Shown here in pieces: positions 15,786-25,051 of a stretch of DNA of 64,000 nt. Position numbers and translations under genes: made by a program. Under the pieces are notes generated by a model. That model was not told where the DNA came from and ran no database searches. It was given only the letters and a program-made list of their open reading frames with translations. This DNA comes from a virus (lineage: Duplodnaviria > Caudoviricetes): the IMG/VR virus record IMGVR_UViG_2744054709_000002, positions 1-64,000 of that record. One strand, 5' to 3'. Numbering within the stretch: position 1 is the stretch's first letter; every line of letters begins with the position of its first letter.

Positions 15786-16423
15786 TGGCGAGACCCGCGC
15801 TGGACCGCGTCCGCAAGAAGGAATTGCGTGCCGAATTTGAAAAGGAGGTCATGGCCGCGTTCGCCAATTTTGGACCCGATTTCGACAAATCCGCCCTCAT
15901 GCGCAAATACACGGCTGCTGGGCTCAACACGTCGAGCCTGTATCGCTGGTTTGACGCCATCAAATCATCGGGCGCCCCGGGCCGTGCATTTGCCGAGAAG
16001 GTTCGAGATAACGTGCGCGAACGCAGCCAGGCCAGCCAAGAGCCTGCGGTAGCGATCGGCGCGGATATCGTCGCCGAACTGCCGGTGGTGCCCGATCCTG
16101 ACGAGATCGTGGGGCTGGGCGTCGGCAAGATCGTTGACCAGATGCAGATGTGCATGAATGTCGCACGCAGGATCCTCAAGCACAGTTTCCATGACGACGG
16201 TAAGCCCCGCAACGCCAAGCTGGCCCTGTCCGCGTCGGAGCACCTGCGCCGCTCGGTCGATACGATGGCACGCCTGTATGAAATGATGATCGCGTACCAA
16301 CAGGTTGAGACGTTCCACAAGACGATTTTCGAGGTCATCCGTGACGTTGATCCGATCGTGGCGGAGACGATCCTCGGGCGTTTGCGGCAACTGAACGCAA
16401 CCCAGCGCGGAGGGGCGGGATGA
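15785..16423 (+). CDS. Probable terminase small subunit
   Basis: HTH-like SSLYRW, helical composition, directly upstream of the large subunit. Confidence 0.6.
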   Translation: MARPALDRVRKKELRAEFEKEVMAAFANFGPDFDKSALMRKYTAAGLNTSSLYRWFDAIKSSGAPGRAFAEKVRDNVRERSQASQEPAVAIGADIVAELPVVPDPDEIVGLGVGKIVDQMQMCMNVARRILKHSFHDDGKPRNAKLALSASEHLRRSVDTMARLYEMMIAYQQVETFHKTIFEVIRDVDPIVAETILGRLRQLNATQRGGAG

Positions 16424-18501
16424 ACCTGCTGCAGCGTTCTCTCGACTGCCAGCTCATGATGCTGGAGGAAACTGCGGCACGGCTGGGCTATGGCGGGACG
16501 GGCTCGATCCCGGAGGCCATGGGGTTTCTGGAGTGGTGCGAGGACCTGGCGGCAAAGGGGCTGAAAATTGACGGACGCCCTTTCCGCCTGGACAACCGGC
16601 CGGCCCTGCGCCCGATCTACGATGCAATCCCGACCACCCGCCAGCAGGCCTATGGCAAGACTCTCGTGATCCAGAAGGCGACCCAGCTGGGCCTTACCGT
16701 GTGGGAAGTGCTGGCCGACCTTTACATGGCCAAGAAATGGTCGCCGGTGAATATCGGGATGTTCCTGCCCGACCAGAACACGGCGGCGTTCAAGTCCGAA
16801 CGACGGTTCATGCCGATCATCCGGTCGTCGCCACAGCTGCTATCGGAACTGATCTATCGCTATGACGGCAAGGGCGGCCGGCAGAAGATCGGTGAAGGCA
16901 ATGTCCTGACGCGCGAGATCGCGGGGTCGCTCCTGATGTTCCTGTGGACGTCGGGCAAGGTCTCCACGGAATCCCGGCCCATGGATATCGTCAGTCTGGA
17001 CGAAGTCCAGGGTATGAGCCTGGAGGAAATTGACAAGGTCGCAGCCCGAATGGGTGACAGCGACGTGCGTTTCAAGATGCTGCTGTCCACGGCGAACATG
17101 CCGGACGAGGATATCAACAACTGGTACAAGCGTGGCACGCAGGAGGTGTGGCACACGCGATGTCCCGGTTGCGGGGCGCTGTCGGACCTGTCCGATCCCA
17201 ACGGCATATTCCCGTCGCGCTCGATCGTTTTCAACAAGGGTCAGGTCCGCCCTGCCCCGCCATATCCCGGCGAAACGGCCCAGCACGCGCCGCCTGTTGA
17301 TGATTATGTGTGGGTCTGCCCGGAGTGCCAGGGCTACATCCCCGACCCGCAATATGGTGACTATATTGCCCAGAATCCCGGTGCTGGAAATGATATCCGC
17401 TCATTCCTGCTGCCCCGGACGATCAGCCCGAGGATGACCGCCCGGGAAATGTTCACCGATTTCGGGTTTGCATCGACAGGAGCGCAGAAACAGAGTTTCT
17501 TCAATCGCACGCTGGCGCGCCCCTATGTTGATCCAGACCAGATCCCAGTTTCCTACGAGGTCTGCCAGGCGGGCGTGGAGCGCGGACGTGCCGCTGGCGT
17601 GACATGGGAGGAAACGGGCAGCGGGACCTACATGGGGATCGACCAGATGGGGGGCTTTAACGCCGTCATCATCAAGAAGCGGCTGCCTGACAACCGGCAG
17701 GCGGTGATCCATGTGGAGGCTGTGTTCGACCTGTCCCCGTTTGACCGGTGTGCTGATCTGATGCGGCAGTACGGGGTTGAGGTCTGTGTCGTCGAACAGC
17801 TGCCGAATTTCAACGATGCGCGCAAATTCGCCAACCGCTTCCCCGGCCGCGTGTTCCTGTGCACCGGCTATCAGGACATGGGCGATGAATCCATGCACTG
17901 GGGGGACAGCCTGTCGCGGTCGGAGCGTATGACCAGCGAGGAAGAACGGACGCGCTACACAGTTCGCTTGGACCGATACAAATGCATGCAGACGTCCTTG
18001 TACCGCATTCGCGACGGTATCTGCCTGTTTCCCGACCCCAACGGGCTGGAGCAGGAAGTCATCGAGAACGGCAGGAAGCGGCGCATCGCGATCCTCTACG
18101 ACTGGGTTTTCCTGCATTTTTCCCGTACTGCCCTGGTCACGGTTGCAGATCCGGAAACAGGGAAGACACGGCGCACTGTCCAGAAGATCGGGCTGGACCC
18201 GCATTTCAGTTTTGCACTGATGCTATGTGATGCGGCATGGGCACGTGTGCAGGGCAATTCCACGTTCATCCTTCCTGATGCTGGATTGGCAGGCGTGGGT
18301 ACCGCCCAGTCGCCGTCTCCGTCCGCAGCCCAGAACCTGACGTCGCGGCTGGCAGAAATGATGGGAAGCGCCCCGGAGGGTGCCTGCGGGAAATGCCGGT
18401 ATTTCGGAGGGGGCACCTGTTCGGAACGGGATCTGCGCGTTGGTGCGCTGGACCCGGGTTGCGTGTTCTACGAGCCCGCTGCGGACGACGTGACATCGTG
18501 A
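16420..18501 (+). CDS. terL: Terminase large subunit (GpA-like)
   Basis: QKATQLGLT Walker A, SLDEV Walker B, ST coupling motif, CxxC pairs and MGID nuclease motif. Confidence 0.92.
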   Translation: MNLLQRSLDCQLMMLEETAARLGYGGTGSIPEAMGFLEWCEDLAAKGLKIDGRPFRLDNRPALRPIYDAIPTTRQQAYGKTLVIQKATQLGLTVWEVLADLYMAKKWSPVNIGMFLPDQNTAAFKSERRFMPIIRSSPQLLSELIYRYDGKGGRQKIGEGNVLTREIAGSLLMFLWTSGKVSTESRPMDIVSLDEVQGMSLEEIDKVAARMGDSDVRFKMLLSTANMPDEDINNWYKRGTQEVWHTRCPGCGALSDLSDPNGIFPSRSIVFNKGQVRPAPPYPGETAQHAPPVDDYVWVCPECQGYIPDPQYGDYIAQNPGAGNDIRSFLLPRTISPRMTAREMFTDFGFASTGAQKQSFFNRTLARPYVDPDQIPVSYEVCQAGVERGRAAGVTWEETGSGTYMGIDQMGGFNAVIIKKRLPDNRQAVIHVEAVFDLSPFDRCADLMRQYGVEVCVVEQLPNFNDARKFANRFPGRVFLCTGYQDMGDESMHWGDSLSRSERMTSEEERTRYTVRLDRYKCMQTSLYRIRDGICLFPDPNGLEQEVIENGRKRRIAILYDWVFLHFSRTALVTVADPETGKTRRTVQKIGLDPHFSFALMLCDAAWARVQGNSTFILPDAGLAGVGTAQSPSPSAAQNLTSRLAEMMGSAPEGACGKCRYFGGGTCSERDLRVGALDPGCVFYEPAADDVTS

Positions 18502-18517: not shown

Positions 18518-20197
18518 ATGAACGAAACCGTGCGACAGTTGGCCCTCGGCCTCGATACCCCGCCTGACGAACGTTTCGACGCGTCCGTGGAGATGCACAA
18601 GGCGTATCGCCCGCTGGCGTCCCAACTGATCCCGCCTGAAAACCTGCGCCCTGTGATTGACTACATCAACAATGGGTTGATGGACGCTGAGTTCTACAAG
18701 GCAACCCCGCGGCAGATCATCCGGCTGGGCGACGGCAATGACACGGGCGGCCGCATGCGGTCAGTGCGGCTGGACCCCCAGAAGATATTTTCCCAGGCGC
18801 GGTATTTTGAGAGGCCGTCCGCGCTGGATTTCACCGGACTGCGCGCGATCGTGGCGCAGACGCCGATCCTCAGCGCCATCGTGCGCCGGCGTGTGCGCCA
18901 GGTCAGTAGGTTTGCCCAGATCAGCGAGGATGGCGGCCTCGGGTTTGAAATCCGGCACAAGGATCGCAACCATCTGCTCAAGGGGACGGAGGCCGATGCC
19001 GCCGCGCATCTGGCGCGGTTTTTCCTCAACTGCGGCTGGGAGTTCAATCCACGCCGGCGCAAGCTGATGCACCGCGACAATTTCCGCCAGTTCATGGCCA
19101 AGTCGGTGCGGGATTCCCTGACGCTGGATTCATGCCCCATCGAGACGGAGATGCGTCGGAACGCTGAACTGGGGCTTGACGGGTTCTACGCCGTGGACGG
19201 TGCCACGATCCGGCTGTGTTCCGAGCAGCATTACGAGGGGGATGACCCGATTTATGCCCTGCAGGTCATCGATGGGCGCATCGGGACCACCTACACGATT
19301 GATCAGTTGATCTACGAGGTTCGCAATCCGCGCACCGACGTTGACACGGGTGGATACGGTGAGGCGGAGCCGGAGGTGATGATCAAGGTCATCACGGGCA
19401 TCCTGAACGCCATGTCCTACAACAATGCCGGGTTCGACGAAAATTCCATCCCCAAGGGCATCCTGCAGCTGATCGGCGATTACGGGCAGGAAGATATCGC
19501 GGCGTTCAAGCGATACTGGAACGCCATGGTCAAGGGGACGGCCAACACCTGGGCCCTTCCTGTCATGGTGGCGAAGGACGCGCAGAGCAAGGTCGCGTTC
19601 GAGAAGTTCGACACCGACTTCAACGAGATGCATTTCGCCAAATGGATGACGTTCCTGACATCCATCGCATGCGCGATCTACGGCATGGCACCGGACGAGA
19701 TCAATTTCGAGAGTTTCTCCGCGTCAAAGTCCTCCCTGTCTGGCAGCGATACGGAGGCCAAGCTGGAGAACGGGCAGGACACGGGGCTGCTGCCACTGCT
19801 TGCGTTCTATGAGGCTACGTTCAGCGATTTCATCGTGTCGGCCTTCAACGATGACTGGTGTTTCCGCTTCGTCGGGCTGGATAGCGAGGATGCCGGGGCC
19901 AAGGCGAAGGAAGACGAGTCTGTCATGACGGTCAACGAACTGCGTGGCCGCCGCGGTGACGCGCCCTTCCCTGACCCCGTGCTGGGCAACGCGCCGCTCA
20001 ATCCCAGCCTGATCCAGCCATGGATGGAACTGAACAAACAGCGGTTCGCAGGCGCAGGTACCGACGATGATCAGCGCCCGGGCGATCCCGGCCGTCCGTC
20101 CGATCCTCCTCCCGATGGTGACGCGGATACGCCTCTAGAAACCGATGATCCCGAGCCGGTCAGGAAATCCCTGGCCACTGTCTACACGGTCGAATAG
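18518..20197 (+). CDS. Portal protein
   Basis: Follows terL; RNPRTD...GYG, F.....PKGIL, ACAIYGMAPDEINF and TVNELR motifs. Confidence 0.92.
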   Translation: MNETVRQLALGLDTPPDERFDASVEMHKAYRPLASQLIPPENLRPVIDYINNGLMDAEFYKATPRQIIRLGDGNDTGGRMRSVRLDPQKIFSQARYFERPSALDFTGLRAIVAQTPILSAIVRRRVRQVSRFAQISEDGGLGFEIRHKDRNHLLKGTEADAAAHLARFFLNCGWEFNPRRRKLMHRDNFRQFMAKSVRDSLTLDSCPIETEMRRNAELGLDGFYAVDGATIRLCSEQHYEGDDPIYALQVIDGRIGTTYTIDQLIYEVRNPRTDVDTGGYGEAEPEVMIKVITGILNAMSYNNAGFDENSIPKGILQLIGDYGQEDIAAFKRYWNAMVKGTANTWALPVMVAKDAQSKVAFEKFDTDFNEMHFAKWMTFLTSIACAIYGMAPDEINFESFSASKSSLSGSDTEAKLENGQDTGLLPLLAFYEATFSDFIVSAFNDDWCFRFVGLDSEDAGAKAKEDESVMTVNELRGRRGDAPFPDPVLGNAPLNPSLIQPWMELNKQRFAGAGTDDDQRPGDPGRPSDPPPDGDADTPLETDDPEPVRKSLATVYTVE

Positions 20198-20221
20198 GCC
20201 CGATAACAGGACTTCCCGACG

Positions 20222-21400
20222 GTGAGAATTTACATCCTTCTAAAAGCCACGATCGCGAACCGGCCCGGCATGGCGCTGGTTTACGGGACGGATCGCCGCG
20301 GGCGGCGCATGCGGCGCTGGAAGCGGGTCGCCGCGCCGGATGCTCCCCCCGCCCATGTCCATGCCGCAGCCGAAAAGGAAGGTGGCGTGCATCGCTCCAT
20401 TCCGCCGGAACATTTCAACGCGGTGGATTTCGCAGCGCCCTATAACGATCATGCTGTGTCGTTGCCGGAGGTCTATCACGGATTTCCGGCCGATACGCAG
20501 GCCCGGCTGGATCAGTCTGCTGACGAACTTGCCAAGAAGCCGACGACGGTTGAACTGTTCTGCCATGACGGTGTCTACACGCCTGAGCGTGCAGCACTTC
20601 ATGAGAGGATACTGGCCGATTATACGTCGGCAGAGCGCCTATCCAAGGCTTTCCCTGCCGAAGGGGAAGCGCCGACCTTCATTTTCCTTGGCGGCCGTGG
20701 TGGTTCCGGGAAATCCGCGTTGCGGGGTATCGCATATGGCGACGACGCGCTTGTCATCGATGCAGACGGCATCAAGGCGCGCCTGCCTGGTTATGACGGG
20801 ACGAACGCACATCTCTATCATGAGGAATCGTCAGACATCGCAGAAGAATTGATGCGGCGTCTGAAGGCGATCAAAGCCAATATCGTTTATGATTCCACCA
20901 TGCGCACGACAGCCAGGGCTGTAGCCCTTGCAAAGTCGATGAAAGCGGATCATTATCGGCTGGAAGTGCATTACATGTTTCTGCCGCGGCTTGATGCAGC
21001 ACGTCGCGCCGTGAGCAGATATATCGAAGACGGGCGGCTGGTCCCTCCTTCCGTGGTGCTCGGAAACCTGACAAACGAAGCAAGTTTTGATGCCGTGAAA
21101 GACCTGGCGGACAGCTGGTCATTTCGCAGCAATCTGGTGGCGCGGGGCAGTCCGCCTGCCCTGATATCGGAGAAGAAAGATGACCGTACTGAAAAATCCC
21201 GAAACGTGGGATTATCCGGACACGGTGGACATAGCCAGGGAGAGCCGCGTGAAGCTGTCTCCGGAGGCAGAGACGGCCTGGGAGGAACGCGTCAGGAAGG
21301 CGCGGCAGATGCGGGCGGAAGCCGACGCGACCGCCTCACGAAAGGACTGATCCCTTCAGCCCGTATTCTGGTGCTGCTTCCTGACTGTCGGCGTGCATGA
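20222..21400 (+). CDS. Zeta-toxin family P-loop kinase
   Basis: FLGGRGGSGKS, IDADGIK..LP.Y, HEESS, VYDST and R...GRLVP motifs. Confidence 0.88.
   Translation: MRIYILLKATIANRPGMALVYGTDRRGRRMRRWKRVAAPDAPPAHVHAAAEKEGGVHRSIPPEHFNAVDFAAPYNDHAVSLPEVYHGFPADTQARLDQSADELAKKPTTVELFCHDGVYTPERAALHERILADYTSAERLSKAFPAEGEAPTFIFLGGRGGSGKSALRGIAYGDDALVIDADGIKARLPGYDGTNAHLYHEESSDIAEELMRRLKAIKANIVYDSTMRTTARAVALAKSMKADHYRLEVHYMFLPRLDAARRAVSRYIEDGRLVPPSVVLGNLTNEASFDAVKDLADSWSFRSNLVARGSPPALISEKKDDRTEKSRNVGLSGHGGHSQGEPREAVSGGRDGLGGTRQEGAADAGGSRRDRLTKGLIPSARILVLLPDCRRA
21180..21350 (+). CDS. Nested 56-aa protein overprinted on the zeta C-terminus (candidate antitoxin)
   Basis: GGAG RBS then ATG; MTVLKNPETWDYPD...ASRKD; the zeta frame is low-complexity over the same span. 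Confidence 0.6.
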   Translation: MTVLKNPETWDYPDTVDIARESRVKLSPEAETAWEERVRKARQMRAEADATASRKD

Positions 21401-22608
21401 CCAGGCGCGCGGAAATTCTGGTCGATATTGGAGGTATAGCGTCATGCCAGTGCGATGATGCGCTGGAAAGCCTGTTCAAGGCCGCGACGGAAACGCCAGC
21501 CCGGAACCCCACCATGCTGTGGGATGACGTTCCCAATCCGATCATCCGCAGGCTGGTCGAACTGTTCACCCAGAAATATCAGGCGGTCCTGAAGCAACTG
21601 CAGGACCGCTTTGGCCAGATCCTTACCGGGAAGGGCACAGGCTCGCTCCAGAAGGCGCTATCCCCTGGATGGGGACGGTGGACGCCTGAACAGGAGCAGG
21701 AGGCCCGGGCGCATCTGGAGCGGCATCCTCCCGAAGATTATACCCTTGATGACTGGATGCTGCTGGTCGAGCTGCTGATGCAGGAATACCTGCCGCATGA
21801 CGTGGCGGTGGACTGGGGGGACTGGCTGACGGTACGGGCTACGCTCGCGGGAAAGGCGCAGGCTGCGTTCGAGGCGCGGGGCATCCGGGATGCCGAGAGC
21901 ATCGCGAAAATGGCGGAATACATGCCCACGGGGTTCGGGGCGGTTCCGCGCAAGATCCTCACGCCAGTCGAGATGAAGACCATCGAGATTGCGCGGGCAC
22001 GCGCGGCCGAGAACATCTCCGCCGTCACCGACGTGGCGCGCCACAAGATGAAGAACCTGATCATCCAGCACATGGAAGCGCAGATGTTCGGGATGAAGCA
22101 GGGTCAGTTCACCGCACTGCGGCAGAGCCTTTTTGATGCGTTCGGGGAACTGAACCGAGATTTCCGGCGCATTGCAGTGACCGAGGCGGGGGAGGCCTGC
22201 AACCAGGGCCTGATCGCCACCCTCTCGCCCGGGCAGCGGGTCAAGCGCGTGGAAGCTTATCGCGGCGCGTGCGCGTTCTGCAAATCGATCAACGGGAAAA
22301 TCTTTACCGTCGTTGCGCCCGACGCGCCGGAGCAGAATGGCCAGACGCAGGTCTGGGTCGGGAAAACCAATATCGGGCGCTCTGCCGCTTCGCGGCGTCG
22401 CACTGACGAAGGGCTGATGCCCCGCAGCGAAAACGAGATGTGGTGGCCAGCCGCCGGCGTCCAGCACCCGAACTGCCGGGGCAGCTGGGTCACGGTTACG
22501 GATCCGGGACCTGATGTTTCCCCTGAATTCGTCAACTGGATGGACGGAATCCTGCGCAAGCATAGTCTCAAGCCAGTCGGCAGACCAAGCGGGCAGCAAC
22601 CAACGTAG
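21397..22608 (+). CDS. Head morphogenesis protein (MuF/SPP1 gp7-like)
   Basis: RRIAVTE, CxxC...NG and HPNCR motifs; position after the portal. Confidence 0.85.
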   Translation: MTRRAEILVDIGGIASCQCDDALESLFKAATETPARNPTMLWDDVPNPIIRRLVELFTQKYQAVLKQLQDRFGQILTGKGTGSLQKALSPGWGRWTPEQEQEARAHLERHPPEDYTLDDWMLLVELLMQEYLPHDVAVDWGDWLTVRATLAGKAQAAFEARGIRDAESIAKMAEYMPTGFGAVPRKILTPVEMKTIEIARARAAENISAVTDVARHKMKNLIIQHMEAQMFGMKQGQFTALRQSLFDAFGELNRDFRRIAVTEAGEACNQGLIATLSPGQRVKRVEAYRGACAFCKSINGKIFTVVAPDAPEQNGQTQVWVGKTNIGRSAASRRRTDEGLMPRSENEMWWPAAGVQHPNCRGSWVTVTDPGPDVSPEFVNWMDGILRKHSLKPVGRPSGQQPT

Positions 22609-23045: not shown

Positions 23046-23090
23046 CATGCATGCTTGCAAGCAAATCGGCAAGCGCCGAGGCATTCTGCC

Positions 23091-23642
23091 ATGCTGATCC
23101 TCCTCAAAGCCATGCCGCAGCATCCCCTGTCATGCTTCCATGAACCCACGGAGGGGCAGAAGCGGGCCGGAAATTATCGTAAGACAAAAACCGATTTCGG
23201 AGGCTTGCCGATCACCATCGAGAACGAGGCCGGAAGTGTCCGGCGCGGTCGCGATCATGGCGGTAAGGAATGGGCCACCACCATGACGTGCCATTACGGA
23301 TATATCCGGGGCACCGTGGGGGCGGACGGCGACCATTATGACGTGTTCATCGGCCCGGACGAAAAGTCACGGCGTGTCTGGATCATCCAGACCATGGCGC
23401 CGCCTGATTTTCGCAAGAAGGACGAGGAAAAGGCGATGCTCGGCTTTGGCAGCGAAAGCGAGGCCCGGGCCAGCTTCCTGCGTCATTACGACAATCCTGC
23501 CTTCCTGGGGGCAATCCGCGAGATGCCGTTCGACATCTTCAAGCGACAGGTCATGGCGACCAAGGAGAACGGAGGAAAACTGCGGGGTCCGAAACCGGTG
23601 AGAAAATGCTTTATCGTGCTTGGGCGTGAGAGCCCGGCATGA
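23091..23642 (+). CDS. Inorganic pyrophosphatase-like domain protein (phage polyvalent-protein type)
   Basis: GNY.K, ITIEN..GS.R.G, HYGYIRGTVGADGDHYDVFIG and DEEK.MLGF motifs. Confidence 0.85.
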   Translation: MLILLKAMPQHPLSCFHEPTEGQKRAGNYRKTKTDFGGLPITIENEAGSVRRGRDHGGKEWATTMTCHYGYIRGTVGADGDHYDVFIGPDEKSRRVWIIQTMAPPDFRKKDEEKAMLGFGSESEARASFLRHYDNPAFLGAIREMPFDIFKRQVMATKENGGKLRGPKPVRKCFIVLGRESPA

Positions 23643-23889: not shown

Positions 23890-24333
23890 ATGCTGAGCGC
23901 GAGGCAGGTCGCTGATTATTTTCTGACGTTGGCGGATCCAGACGTTGGGGATGAGATTTCCAATCTGAAGCTCCAGAAGCTCTGCTATTACGCGCAGGGG
24001 TTCAGCCTGGCTTTGAACGACACGCCCCTGTTTATGGAGCCGATTGTCGCTTGGCAGCATGGCCCCGTGGTGGAATCAATTTACCATGCGTTCAAGATAT
24101 ATGGGTCACAAGGGATTCCATGTCCTGTGGGGCTGGATTTCTCGGTATATGACGAGGATGACCGGGAACTGCTGAACGAAGTCTATGACGAGTATGGGCA
24201 GTTTTCCGCGTGGAAACTGCGCAATATGACGCATGAGGAAGCGCCGTGGCGCAACGCTGACAAGAGCGGTGCAAATAACGTGATCTCCCAGTCAGCTATG
24301 AAAAAATTCTTCAAGAGGCGGCTGAAGGACTAG
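23890..24333 (+). CDS. Panacea (DUF4065/SocA/GepA-like) antitoxin
   Basis: ISNLKLQKLCYYAQ, LF.E.I.AW.HGPVV and L..MTH.E.PW motifs. Confidence 0.93.
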   Translation: MLSARQVADYFLTLADPDVGDEISNLKLQKLCYYAQGFSLALNDTPLFMEPIVAWQHGPVVESIYHAFKIYGSQGIPCPVGLDFSVYDEDDRELLNEVYDEYGQFSAWKLRNMTHEEAPWRNADKSGANNVISQSAMKKFFKRRLKD

Positions 24334-24337
24334 CGTC

Positions 24338-24766
24338 CTGTCGGCCAAGAAAAACAAAAAGCGTATCGCCAGTGCCCCAGCGCGGACATCGGGAAGAATT
24401 GCTGCGCCGCAGTCATCAAGCGGCAGTACTGATCACCTGAAGCCCCATTTCAGTCTGGAAAACCTGCAGCCATCGCATGATATCGAATGCTGCGAGGAGA
24501 ATGAGCGGGCAAGGTTCGCTGTGGCAATCGCCAAACGCTCCAAATTAACGTGGAACGAACTGCGCGCATCCGGTCGTCACGGACTTGGATACGAGAAGAT
24601 CGGCCGATCATCCATGAAGGTGGCTATTCCGCCATTCATCACTGAAGAAACGCCAATAATCGCTTTTCGATGTGCGGGGATGGCGCCGATGGTCGGTTAT
24701 CGGGGCGGCCGGGTTTTCTATGTCGTCTGGATTGACCGCGCGTTTGATGTGTACGATCATGGATAA
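24338..24766 (+). CDS. Putative cognate toxin (PanT-type, RNase-like), probable CTG start
   Basis: Frame open from 24326; AAGGA 8 nt before CTG; LTW, GYEKI, FR....MVGYR....FYVVWID....VYDH. Confidence 0.75.
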   Translation: MSAKKNKKRIASAPARTSGRIAAPQSSSGSTDHLKPHFSLENLQPSHDIECCEENERARFAVAIAKRSKLTWNELRASGRHGLGYEKIGRSSMKVAIPPFITEETPIIAFRCAGMAPMVGYRGGRVFYVVWIDRAFDVYDHG

Positions 24767-24799: not shown

Positions 24800-25051
24800 A
24801 TGACAGAAGTTCCCGTTTGTAAAAAACGCGTTGAAGACGCCTGCATTGCAGCACTCCAAAACAGTGATGCTGATTTGTTAGTTATTTTTAATAGACTGCA
24901 AAAAATTTCAGGAATCGAAGAAATAGGACCCAAAAGAAAGGAAATAGAAATTTTATTGTTAAAAGCGCAATTATGTGAAGGAAATATAATGAATATTTCA
25001 GATCACGATTTTCGTCTCATTGCGAGTGAATTGGAAAAGGAAAAAAATTAA
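24800..25051 (+). CDS. AT-rich hypothetical protein (moron)
   Basis: 83-aa ORF spanning a low-GC island. Confidence 0.55.
   Translation: MTEVPVCKKRVEDACIAALQNSDADLLVIFNRLQKISGIEEIGPKRKEIEILLLKAQLCEGNIMNISDHDFRLIASELEKEKN

Follow-up and report, generated by a model that had tools for sequence, protein, structure and literature searches.

Does a zeta-toxin-like kinase gene of a phage contain a second, genuine gene, and what could such a gene contribute? This question is raised by a stretch of 64,000 nucleotides (nt), in the following called the window, which comprises positions 1 to 64,000 of the IMG/VR virus record IMGVR_UViG_2744054709_000002 (Caudoviricetes), a complete genome of 75.7 kb with direct terminal repeats. 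A first-pass annotation of the window had noticed, near the 3' end of the kinase gene (in the following the zeta gene), an open reading frame (ORF) of 56 codons in the +1 frame, and had proposed that it is an antitoxin gene overprinted on the toxin gene. The results described below indicate that the ORF is very probably a real gene, homologous to a family of small genes in related phages, and that its product is probably a specific partner of the kinase, which may hold it inactive. The origin by overprinting was not borne out. The features of the overlap are as follows:

20222..21400, + strand: zeta-toxin-like kinase gene, 392 amino acids (aa), GTG start, Pfam Zeta_toxin
21162..21164, + strand: TGA closing the +1 frame upstream, formed by the codons for the conserved Leu-Ile pair of the LISE motif
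21169..21172, + strand: GGAG, Shine-Dalgarno (SD)-like, formed by the Ser-Glu codons (TCG GAG) of LISE
21173..21331, + strand: linker of the zeta frame, residues 318-370, Gly/Arg-rich and predicted to be disordered; doubles as the nested gene
21180..21350, + strand: nested small gene, 56 aa, +1 frame, assigned as a divergent member of a zeta-associated small-protein family
21332..21397, + strand: conserved C-terminal tag of the zeta protein, RLTKGLIPSARILVLLPDCRRA, family pattern [LM]xK[SA]

The small frame and its chance level

The coordinates and the peptide of the ORF could be confirmed throughout. It starts with the ATG at 21180, ends with the TGA at 21348-21350, which is formed by the zeta codons L376-I377 (CTG ATC), and overlaps zeta residues 320-377. 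The GGAG is located 7 nt before the ATG. An upstream TGA in the +1 frame is also found in the other nested loci described below, 3-8 codons before the nested ATG.

Taken alone, the nested ORF is not beyond chance. The window contains 299 ATG-initiated ORFs of at least 56 aa, of which 59 lie inside a larger ORF of the same strand in another frame and 46 have an SD-like motif. When the zeta residues were resampled with synonymous codons, the +1 frame was open over the whole span in 20% of the cases (8-100% across ten other lineages); stops are rare in this frame of the linker because few codons have a T at the second position (5 of 56). The GC content by codon position is lowest, within the overlap, at the second position of the nested frame, which is a weak signal at 60% GC. 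A contig from an RNA library covers the stretch, and such a contig cannot show transcription. What raises the ORF above chance is its homology to a gene family that occupies the same place in related phages.

A small-protein family at phage zeta-kinase loci

In the following, L-numbers denote zeta loci on the contigs of relatives, and P-numbers denote proteins from searches that included 1.84 billion representatives. The nested frame became apparent as a family feature in eight relatives on viral contigs that have long linkers. In all eight, the +1 frame starts at an ATG a few codons past LISE, stops just before the tag, and has the consensus M..KLT.E..(L/M)D(Y/S).D(C/S)RP...P(D/E).(I/M)..., while the +2 frame of the same stretch contains 1-7 stops. 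L082 and L116 represent two more nested lineages. In relatives with short linkers, the small protein is encoded by a separate gene that begins at the zeta stop.

The frequencies of these configurations were determined with a profile of the small proteins at 96 loci with a parsable zeta ORF, duplicates included (six further loci were unparsed). The small gene was nested at 14 loci, directly downstream at 64 and elsewhere at one, and 17 loci had none; the distinction between nested and downstream was made by the stop of the small ORF, so that 13 rows with a stop past the zeta stop were counted as downstream. After reduction to distinct versions, 11 nested lineages (including that of the window) and 40 downstream genes with an ATG remained, that is, 51 versions; five further rows have no ATG before the motif and are outside the 40. 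The family members have sizes of 43-82 aa. Among the downstream versions, 23 of 40 have an ATGA overlap of stop and start, five further versions overlap by 1 nt, and 38 of the 40 start between -30 and +20 nt of the zeta stop. SD-like motifs precede 31 of the 40 downstream versions and 7 of the 11 nested versions (at -17 to -4).

Homology between nested and separate genes was assessed with a profile for which only those parts of 22 separate genes were used that do not overlap zeta. Its nine top matches among 1233 six-frame ORFs, pooled from the loci concerned, were nested ORFs, each of another lineage than that of the window, with E values of 3e-13 (L002), 2e-6 (L008), 6e-6 (L010), 4e-5 (L062) and 7e-5 (L034), and weaker values for L017 and L072 (3e-4) and for L065 and L016 (about 0.01, up to 0.013). 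Because the profile was built only from non-overlapping parts, the homology is not a by-product of the zeta frame. Conversely, a reverse search with patterns of the small proteins (a subset of seven sequences from one subfamily) led to 14 viral-contig loci, all of which lie on contigs already found by way of zeta. The viral-contig locus search yielded no relatives with a single-protein query; an alignment query did find them. The small-protein family has no match in Pfam, PHROGs, PDB sequences or Atlas, and no fold match in PDB at E <=0.001. It sits downstream of or inside phage zeta-kinase genes, where standard annotation can miss it.

Several further occurrences were noted. At L031 and L058 the best family match is on the opposite strand and at a distance from the zeta stop. 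Longer fused forms were sought, and the one match was P0168 (189 aa), which carries the motif twice in tandem, with unrelated sequence after it, and has no zeta domain; that none further were found is weak evidence. L114, a second site in the genome that bears L096, is a degraded copy with a zeta remnant containing in-frame stops, and its small ORF (in the cluster of P0123) is about 50% identical to the nested gene of the window and is listed in RefSeq as a hypothetical protein from an internal Met. On the related contigs of L066 (2082-4178) and L036 (2085-4181), a second-frame ORF of 699 codons spans the greater part of the zeta gene and ends with the small gene, probably an effect of GC-rich composition.

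The nested gene of the window as a family member

Sequence comparisons place the ORF of the window as a divergent member of this unannotated family. With a leave-one-out profile, it ranked first (E 0.009) when all 1334 six-frame ORFs of the window were scored; a profile restricted to nested members gave E 0.067. In a phmmer search against 12571 ORFs from 97 loci, the top three matches were the syntenic small ORFs of L034 (E 0.003), L092 (0.12) and L002 (0.23). A hhalign comparison of a window-clade profile (seven sequences, one of them a 50%-identical relative) with the profile of separate genes only gave P 1.2e-4 over 36 columns; the controls were the zeta-frame linker (P 0.31), the reversed alignment (P 0.21) and 40 column shuffles (lowest P 0.036). 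The most direct link is to L092, the nearest kinase relative with a DNA sequence that was compared, whose kinase is the sister of the window kinase in a quick tree (Shimodaira-Hasegawa-like approximate likelihood ratio test support 96). Its small gene is separate and does not overlap, and BLASTP matched it to the window ORF with E 1e-5 over the pattern PE.(W/L)DY.D.VD(I/L).

The family motif P-[DE]-x-[YFW]-D-x-x-D is present in the window copy as NPETWDYPD, with D11 and D14 on columns that are conserved to at least 90%. A second family element, P-[DE]-x-[IML]..K..[IL]..ER, is located at the start of the helix; SPEAETAWEERV of the window is aligned there, and the closest look-alike is found in L091, KLSPEVEAALAKRE. 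The AlphaFold2 model of the 56-aa protein has a predicted local distance difference test (pLDDT) score of 83.8 and consists of an extended acidic/aromatic N-terminal part, which includes NPETWDYPD, and one long helix (residues 28-55).

The search of the 1.84 billion representatives retrieved a 56-aa protein that is 95% identical (P0121) and a 64-aa protein that is 50% identical. Public records already list the family ORF, as P0121 and P0160-P0163 (56 aa each) and as WP_178388376.1, a "hypothetical protein" of Novacetimonas hansenii; an assembly of this species carries an identical copy of the gene. Among 251 Acetobacteraceae genomes searched, a zeta relative was found in four. Conservation of the +1 frame in homologues, which the first-pass annotation had named as a check, was observed at two levels: the frame is open in all 11 nested lineages, and it is intact in five cluster members with 91-98% identity. 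The 50%-identical relative retains WDYPD.VD..ESR.K.SPE. Two repeat proteins also resemble the window peptide, namely P0122 (E 6.7e-6) and P0124 (380 aa, E 3.6e-4), the latter with three repeats that each contain a ..NP..YDYPGVD....K.LSP.. stretch; this is probably a motif-level or repeat-inflated likeness.

The zeta frame across the nested gene

The zeta protein matches Pfam Zeta_toxin at residues 144-285 (E 7.5e-22, 78.2 bits versus a cut-off of 22.3), the solved zeta toxin 1gvn_B (E 4.4e-8) and phrog_16619, a "minor head protein" (E 2.8e-9). Its Walker A motif is GGRGGSGKS, and the P-loop as well as D180, D182 and K185 are invariant among 20 homologues. The GTG start is backed by an N-terminal alignment with P0002. 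The protein is organized into an N-terminal hydrophobic run with an ANRPG motif, the kinase core, a low-complexity linker and the C-terminal tag. In the AlphaFold2 model, pLDDT is above 90 for most of residues 61-320 and below 50 for residues 332-392.

The first-pass annotation had described the zeta frame as Gly/Arg-rich filler over exactly the span of the ORF, followed by a hydrophobic C-terminal tag, and both descriptions are correct. Gly and Arg make up 38% of the residues over the overlap versus 14% in the kinase part. In an alignment of 20 homologues, the kinase ends with LISE, which is followed by a low-complexity linker, between 0 and about 70 aa long and missing from most homologues, and then by the tag. 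In the tag, [LM]xK[SA] is separated by a few residues from a hydrophobic run, and basic residues come last. It spans residues 371-392 in the window kinase, and K374 is nearly invariant among the 20 homologues. The tag follows the nested gene in 11 of 11 nested lineages, and it is present in all full-length close relatives examined (8 of the cluster's 13 members). In the fused, long multidomain forms L002 and L034, the tag motif is located at a domain junction. The conservation of the tag past the overlap implies that the zeta frame has been maintained without stops throughout the nested gene. Both reading frames are conserved, over about 170 nt.

A recurring motif, a hydrophobic run followed by K-A or K-S and often preceded by [LM]xK[SA], was observed at the N-terminus of the zeta protein (MRIYILLKAT; 20222-20280), at its C-terminus (21332-21397), at the start of an ORF with an InPase domain further downstream (AMLILLKAM; 23055-23130) and at domain junctions of the long fused relatives L034 and L002. 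Head-packaged proteins may use it as a signal for processing or for targeting to the capsid. Reads from related strains in three DNA runs contain eight clustered differences at 20305-20353, in the N-terminal spacer (residues about 28-44, low model confidence), and five listed differences in the kinase core; none of the listed differences is in the overlap. Likewise, the reads of four runs revealed no variation within 21180-21350.

Origin of the nested arrangement

The term "overprinted" implies that the small gene was born inside the zeta gene, and de novo birth of this kind is not supported by the comparison of the loci. The same small gene is separate in 40 distinct relatives, including L092, and is a widespread element, whereas the linker that lies over it is lineage-specific and disordered. 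Because the gene is separate in so many relatives and because the linker is the variable, low-complexity and disordered part, it is more likely that the zeta frame was extended over an older gene. In L065 and in the group of L003-L007 and L018, the zeta frame ends right after LISE and the small gene begins there; loss of the stop after LISE would directly yield the nested form. In L002 and L034, the zeta frame crosses the small gene into further domains via the same tag motif that opens the InPase gene of the window, which suggests that neighbouring genes were fused across the small gene. In the quick tree, the nested state requires six changes, two of which are forced by well-supported branches, and therefore we do not claim that nesting arose only once, nor that the change went in a particular direction.

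Genomic setting

The genes that surround the zeta gene are the following:

16420..18501: large terminase, upstream of portal
18518..20197, + strand: portal protein gene, Pfam Phage_portal E 8.2e-11, PHROG portal families with best E 7.3e-33
21397..22608, + strand: 403-aa gene with an ATG overlapping the zeta stop (ATGA), possible minor head or MuF-like protein
23055..23642, + strand: gene with an InPase domain (PF18823, E 1.1e-41), downstream of the zeta gene
23890-24333, + strand: ORF of 147 aa located in the structural module, 2.5 kb past the zeta gene; SocA/Panacea antitoxin domain (PF13274, E 4.3e-22)

The position of the portal gene directly 5' of the zeta gene places the pair of zeta and small gene in the head module. 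The 403-aa protein has a weak match to phrog_581, "minor head protein" (E 0.025), and no Pfam match; homologues of its gene also come after the pair of zeta and small gene in L082, L087 and L116. A promoter scan of 20000-21700 found one site versus 0.6 expected, and BLASTN of 20900-21500 against plasmid and phage collections yielded no match. The InPase protein matches segments of very long PHROGs phage proteins (DarB-like, minor head, virion structural), and a tie to polyvalent proteins rests on these matches. In L034, an InPase domain is fused behind the zeta kinase, and the domains fused there are separate genes in this phage.

It had been stated that no separate antitoxin gene is adjacent to the zeta gene. 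This is correct for antitoxins of the epsilon type, of which the phage record contains none, and it needs qualifying because of the SocA/Panacea gene 2.5 kb downstream. The latter could be half of a toxin-antitoxin pair of its own and is less likely to have a bearing on the zeta kinase. It is followed by small ORFs at 24521..24766 and 24800..25051 that belong to no clear family.

Role of the small protein and alternative explanations

The overall best explanation, to which we assign a probability of about 50%, is that the small gene is a genuine family gene that accompanies a head-module zeta kinase and encodes a partner that holds the kinase inactive. The parts of this explanation differ in strength: a specific partnership with the kinase is probable, and linkage and coupling make inhibition plausible. 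The small gene of most relatives begins at the stop of the kinase gene, typically with ATGA, so that both products would be made from one message by coupled translation. In the lineage of the window and in ten others, the kinase frame continues over the small gene in the -1 phase and yields a predicted disordered, Gly/Arg-rich linker that rejoins the tag. The nested gene retains its own ATG, which would be served by the GGAG that the Ser-Glu codons of the kinase provide. The small protein would then bind the kinase and suppress its activity in the cell that produces it, or up to the point at which the kinase enters the capsid, in the manner of an immunity protein or antitoxin, presumably via the acidic-aromatic N-terminal segment and the single helix. 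An extended segment together with a single helix is a usual shape for proteins that fold on a partner. Inhibition is favoured because of the tight linkage and coupling, because of this shape, and because short immunity ORFs typically follow the toxin domains of phage head modules (PMC5576092).

Several results weigh against this explanation or against steps that lead to it. The first hidden Markov model built from separate genes only missed the ORF of the window (E 66), and the Arg-Pro that follows the acidic motif in the family (D-[CG]-x-R-P) is absent from the window copy, which has T-V-D-I at this place; T-V-D-I can be read as a variant of the clade because the separate gene of L092 has C-V-D-L. 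The open +1 frame as such was rejected as evidence for a gene, since the composition of the linker explains it (20% of the resamplings). Frame-specific selection was not detected by pairwise conservation or by substitution counts. The mean BLOSUM score was 47.5 for the nested frame versus 43.3 for the zeta frame, with the nested frame higher in 30 of 55 pairs; among the 10 pairs that include the window, the zeta frame had the higher score in 8, which probably reflects the ease with which low-complexity, Gly-rich strings are aligned. Substitutions in the four closest pairs numbered 42, 47 and 56 at the three codon positions of the nested frame, and the ratios of synonymous to non-synonymous substitutions were 46/99 for the nested frame and 41/104 for the zeta frame. 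With regard to function, the small gene was not detectable at 17 of the 96 zeta loci, which an essential antitoxin would not allow. In epsilon-zeta and PezAT, the antitoxin gene lies upstream of the toxin gene, the opposite of the order here. Finally, a toxin that is expressed late, in a cell that is about to lyse, may not need an antidote.

The alternative that survives best is that the small protein is indeed a partner of the kinase and not its inhibitor, for example a chaperone or adaptor that loads the kinase onto the portal, the MuF protein or the procapsid, or an activating subunit. We regard this as unlikely, although much of the setting fits it: the pair lies between the portal gene and the gene of a possible minor head protein, the kinase matches a minor head protein family (phrog_16619), MuF-fused zeta-like kinases are read as virion-delivered in PMC5512222, coupled translation suits any stoichiometric partner, and the small gene is absent from 17 of 96 loci. 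The association of the small protein with zeta specifically at all 14 loci of the reverse search (one subfamily) speaks against a general role in head assembly, and comparison with Pfam, PHROGs and PDB revealed no likeness to known chaperones or scaffolds of the head.

It is less probable still that the gene is real and independent of the kinase, with a function for example against host defence or in head maturation, and that it merely travels along as a neighbour in the module. The two proteins are tied by linkage, not by functional data, and the matches on the other strand at L031 and L058 and the zeta-less P0168 would suit such an independence. The start/stop coupling in 28 of the 40 distinct separate versions would be unexpected under this assumption, as would the retention of the small gene in lineages in which the zeta ORF has engulfed it and the fact that the window and L092 belong to one kinase branch and also share the VD[IL] variant, an unusual form of the motif.

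We consider it improbable that the ORF is not expressed in this phage and is either open by chance or the remnant of a decaying gene in which the linker composition prevents stops. The 299 ORFs of similar or greater length in the window, the 20% of open resamplings, the weak membership scores (E 0.009, P 1.2e-4) and the undetected frame-specific selection are all in line with this possibility. They are opposed by a rank-1 match at exactly the syntenic position together with negative hhalign controls, by an ATG and a GGAG that are in place, and by a frame that is intact in the five cluster members with 91-98% identity and a motif that is kept in the 50%-identical relative.

Programmed frameshifting into the +1 frame, which would give the kinase an alternative C-terminus and for which the A-rich stretch GAGAAGAAAG just before the nested ATG might speak, is very improbable and was rejected, because a TGA closes the +1 frame only five codons before the ATG, no slippery sequence is common to the 11 nested loci, and the homologues in 40 lineages are separate genes with an ATG of their own.

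If the small protein is a partner that holds the kinase inactive, it would represent a new type of antitoxin and would offer a handle on how head-packaged effectors stay harmless in the producer. The widest form of this proposal is more tentative: the family would be a new family of zeta-kinase inhibitors, unrelated to epsilon and PezA, that serves a virion-delivered zeta effector and whose gene was swallowed by the effector frame in several lineages. In that case, the disordered linker of a toxin (or of a polyvalent protein, as in L034) would double as the coding sequence of its antidote.

Comparison with known systems

Zeta and PezT kinases are well-studied toxins, and their known antidotes, epsilon and PezA, are three-helix bundles of about 90 aa. 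The locus of the window shares with epsilon-zeta and PezA-PezT the combination of a zeta-type P-loop kinase with a small protein on the same message. It differs from them in that the small protein has 56 aa and is predicted to form one helix and an extended segment, in that its gene lies inside the toxin gene (after it in most relatives), and in that the pair is part of a phage head module and not of a plasmid or chromosomal addiction locus. Epsilon_antitox (PF08998) matched none of 40 family members, and it had no match in the 75.7-kb phage record at E values of up to 1. By these comparisons of sequence and predicted shape, the small-protein family is unrelated to epsilon and PezA. Zeta and PezT phosphorylate UDP-N-acetylglucosamine and are toxic, according to work cited in a passage of PMC5512222; the same activity is putative for the kinases of this phage clade.

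Orphan zeta toxins without a cognate antitoxin are reported in a 2023 review, in which candidates were sought among the upstream genes (PMC10532202). If the proposed inhibition is true, the small-protein family would supply candidate antitoxins for "orphan" zeta/PezT toxins that such upstream-gene searches leave unexplained (PMC10532202). A setting of a similar kind has been reported for the MuF polymorphic toxins of temperate phages, in which, according to passages of PMC5576092, a short immunity ORF typically comes after the toxin domain in the head module. The window resembles these systems in that a toxin-type domain by the portal gene is followed by a very short unannotated ORF; it differs from them in that the kinase is not fused to MuF and that the toxin ORF can contain the small ORF. 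The word "zeta" is absent from the main text of PMC5576092. A literature search, which included PMC5512222, PMC9503650, PMC5576092 and PMC10532202, found in the portions of these texts that were covered no account of phage zeta-kinase genes that contain a small gene or are followed by one; supplements were outside its scope, and Table S3 of PMC10532202 may bear on the matter.

The zeta-toxin-like kinase is also named as a domain of polyvalent proteins, fused to MuF in phages, in passages of PMC5512222. The passages of that article on zeta, antitoxins, immunity and overlap contain no mention of a small partner gene or of a gene nested in an interdomain linker. The window has in common with polyvalent proteins the nearby InPase gene (23055..23642), and its relatives L002 and L034 are long multidomain fusions. 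In the window, in contrast, the domains are separate genes.

The closest architectural parallel is provided by the Rz/Rz1 spanins of lambda-like phages. There, the +1 frame of a larger gene contains a complete small gene; depending on the phage, the two genes are embedded, overlapping or separate, and their products bind each other. The same series of embedded, overlapping and separate forms is found for the pair of zeta and small gene. The proteins are unrelated and the spanins act in lysis, and binding of the products is known for Rz/Rz1, whereas it is proposed here. Whatever the function of the small protein may be, the series of separate, overlapping and embedded forms across 51 distinct versions represents a clean natural example of nesting by extension of a neighbouring frame.

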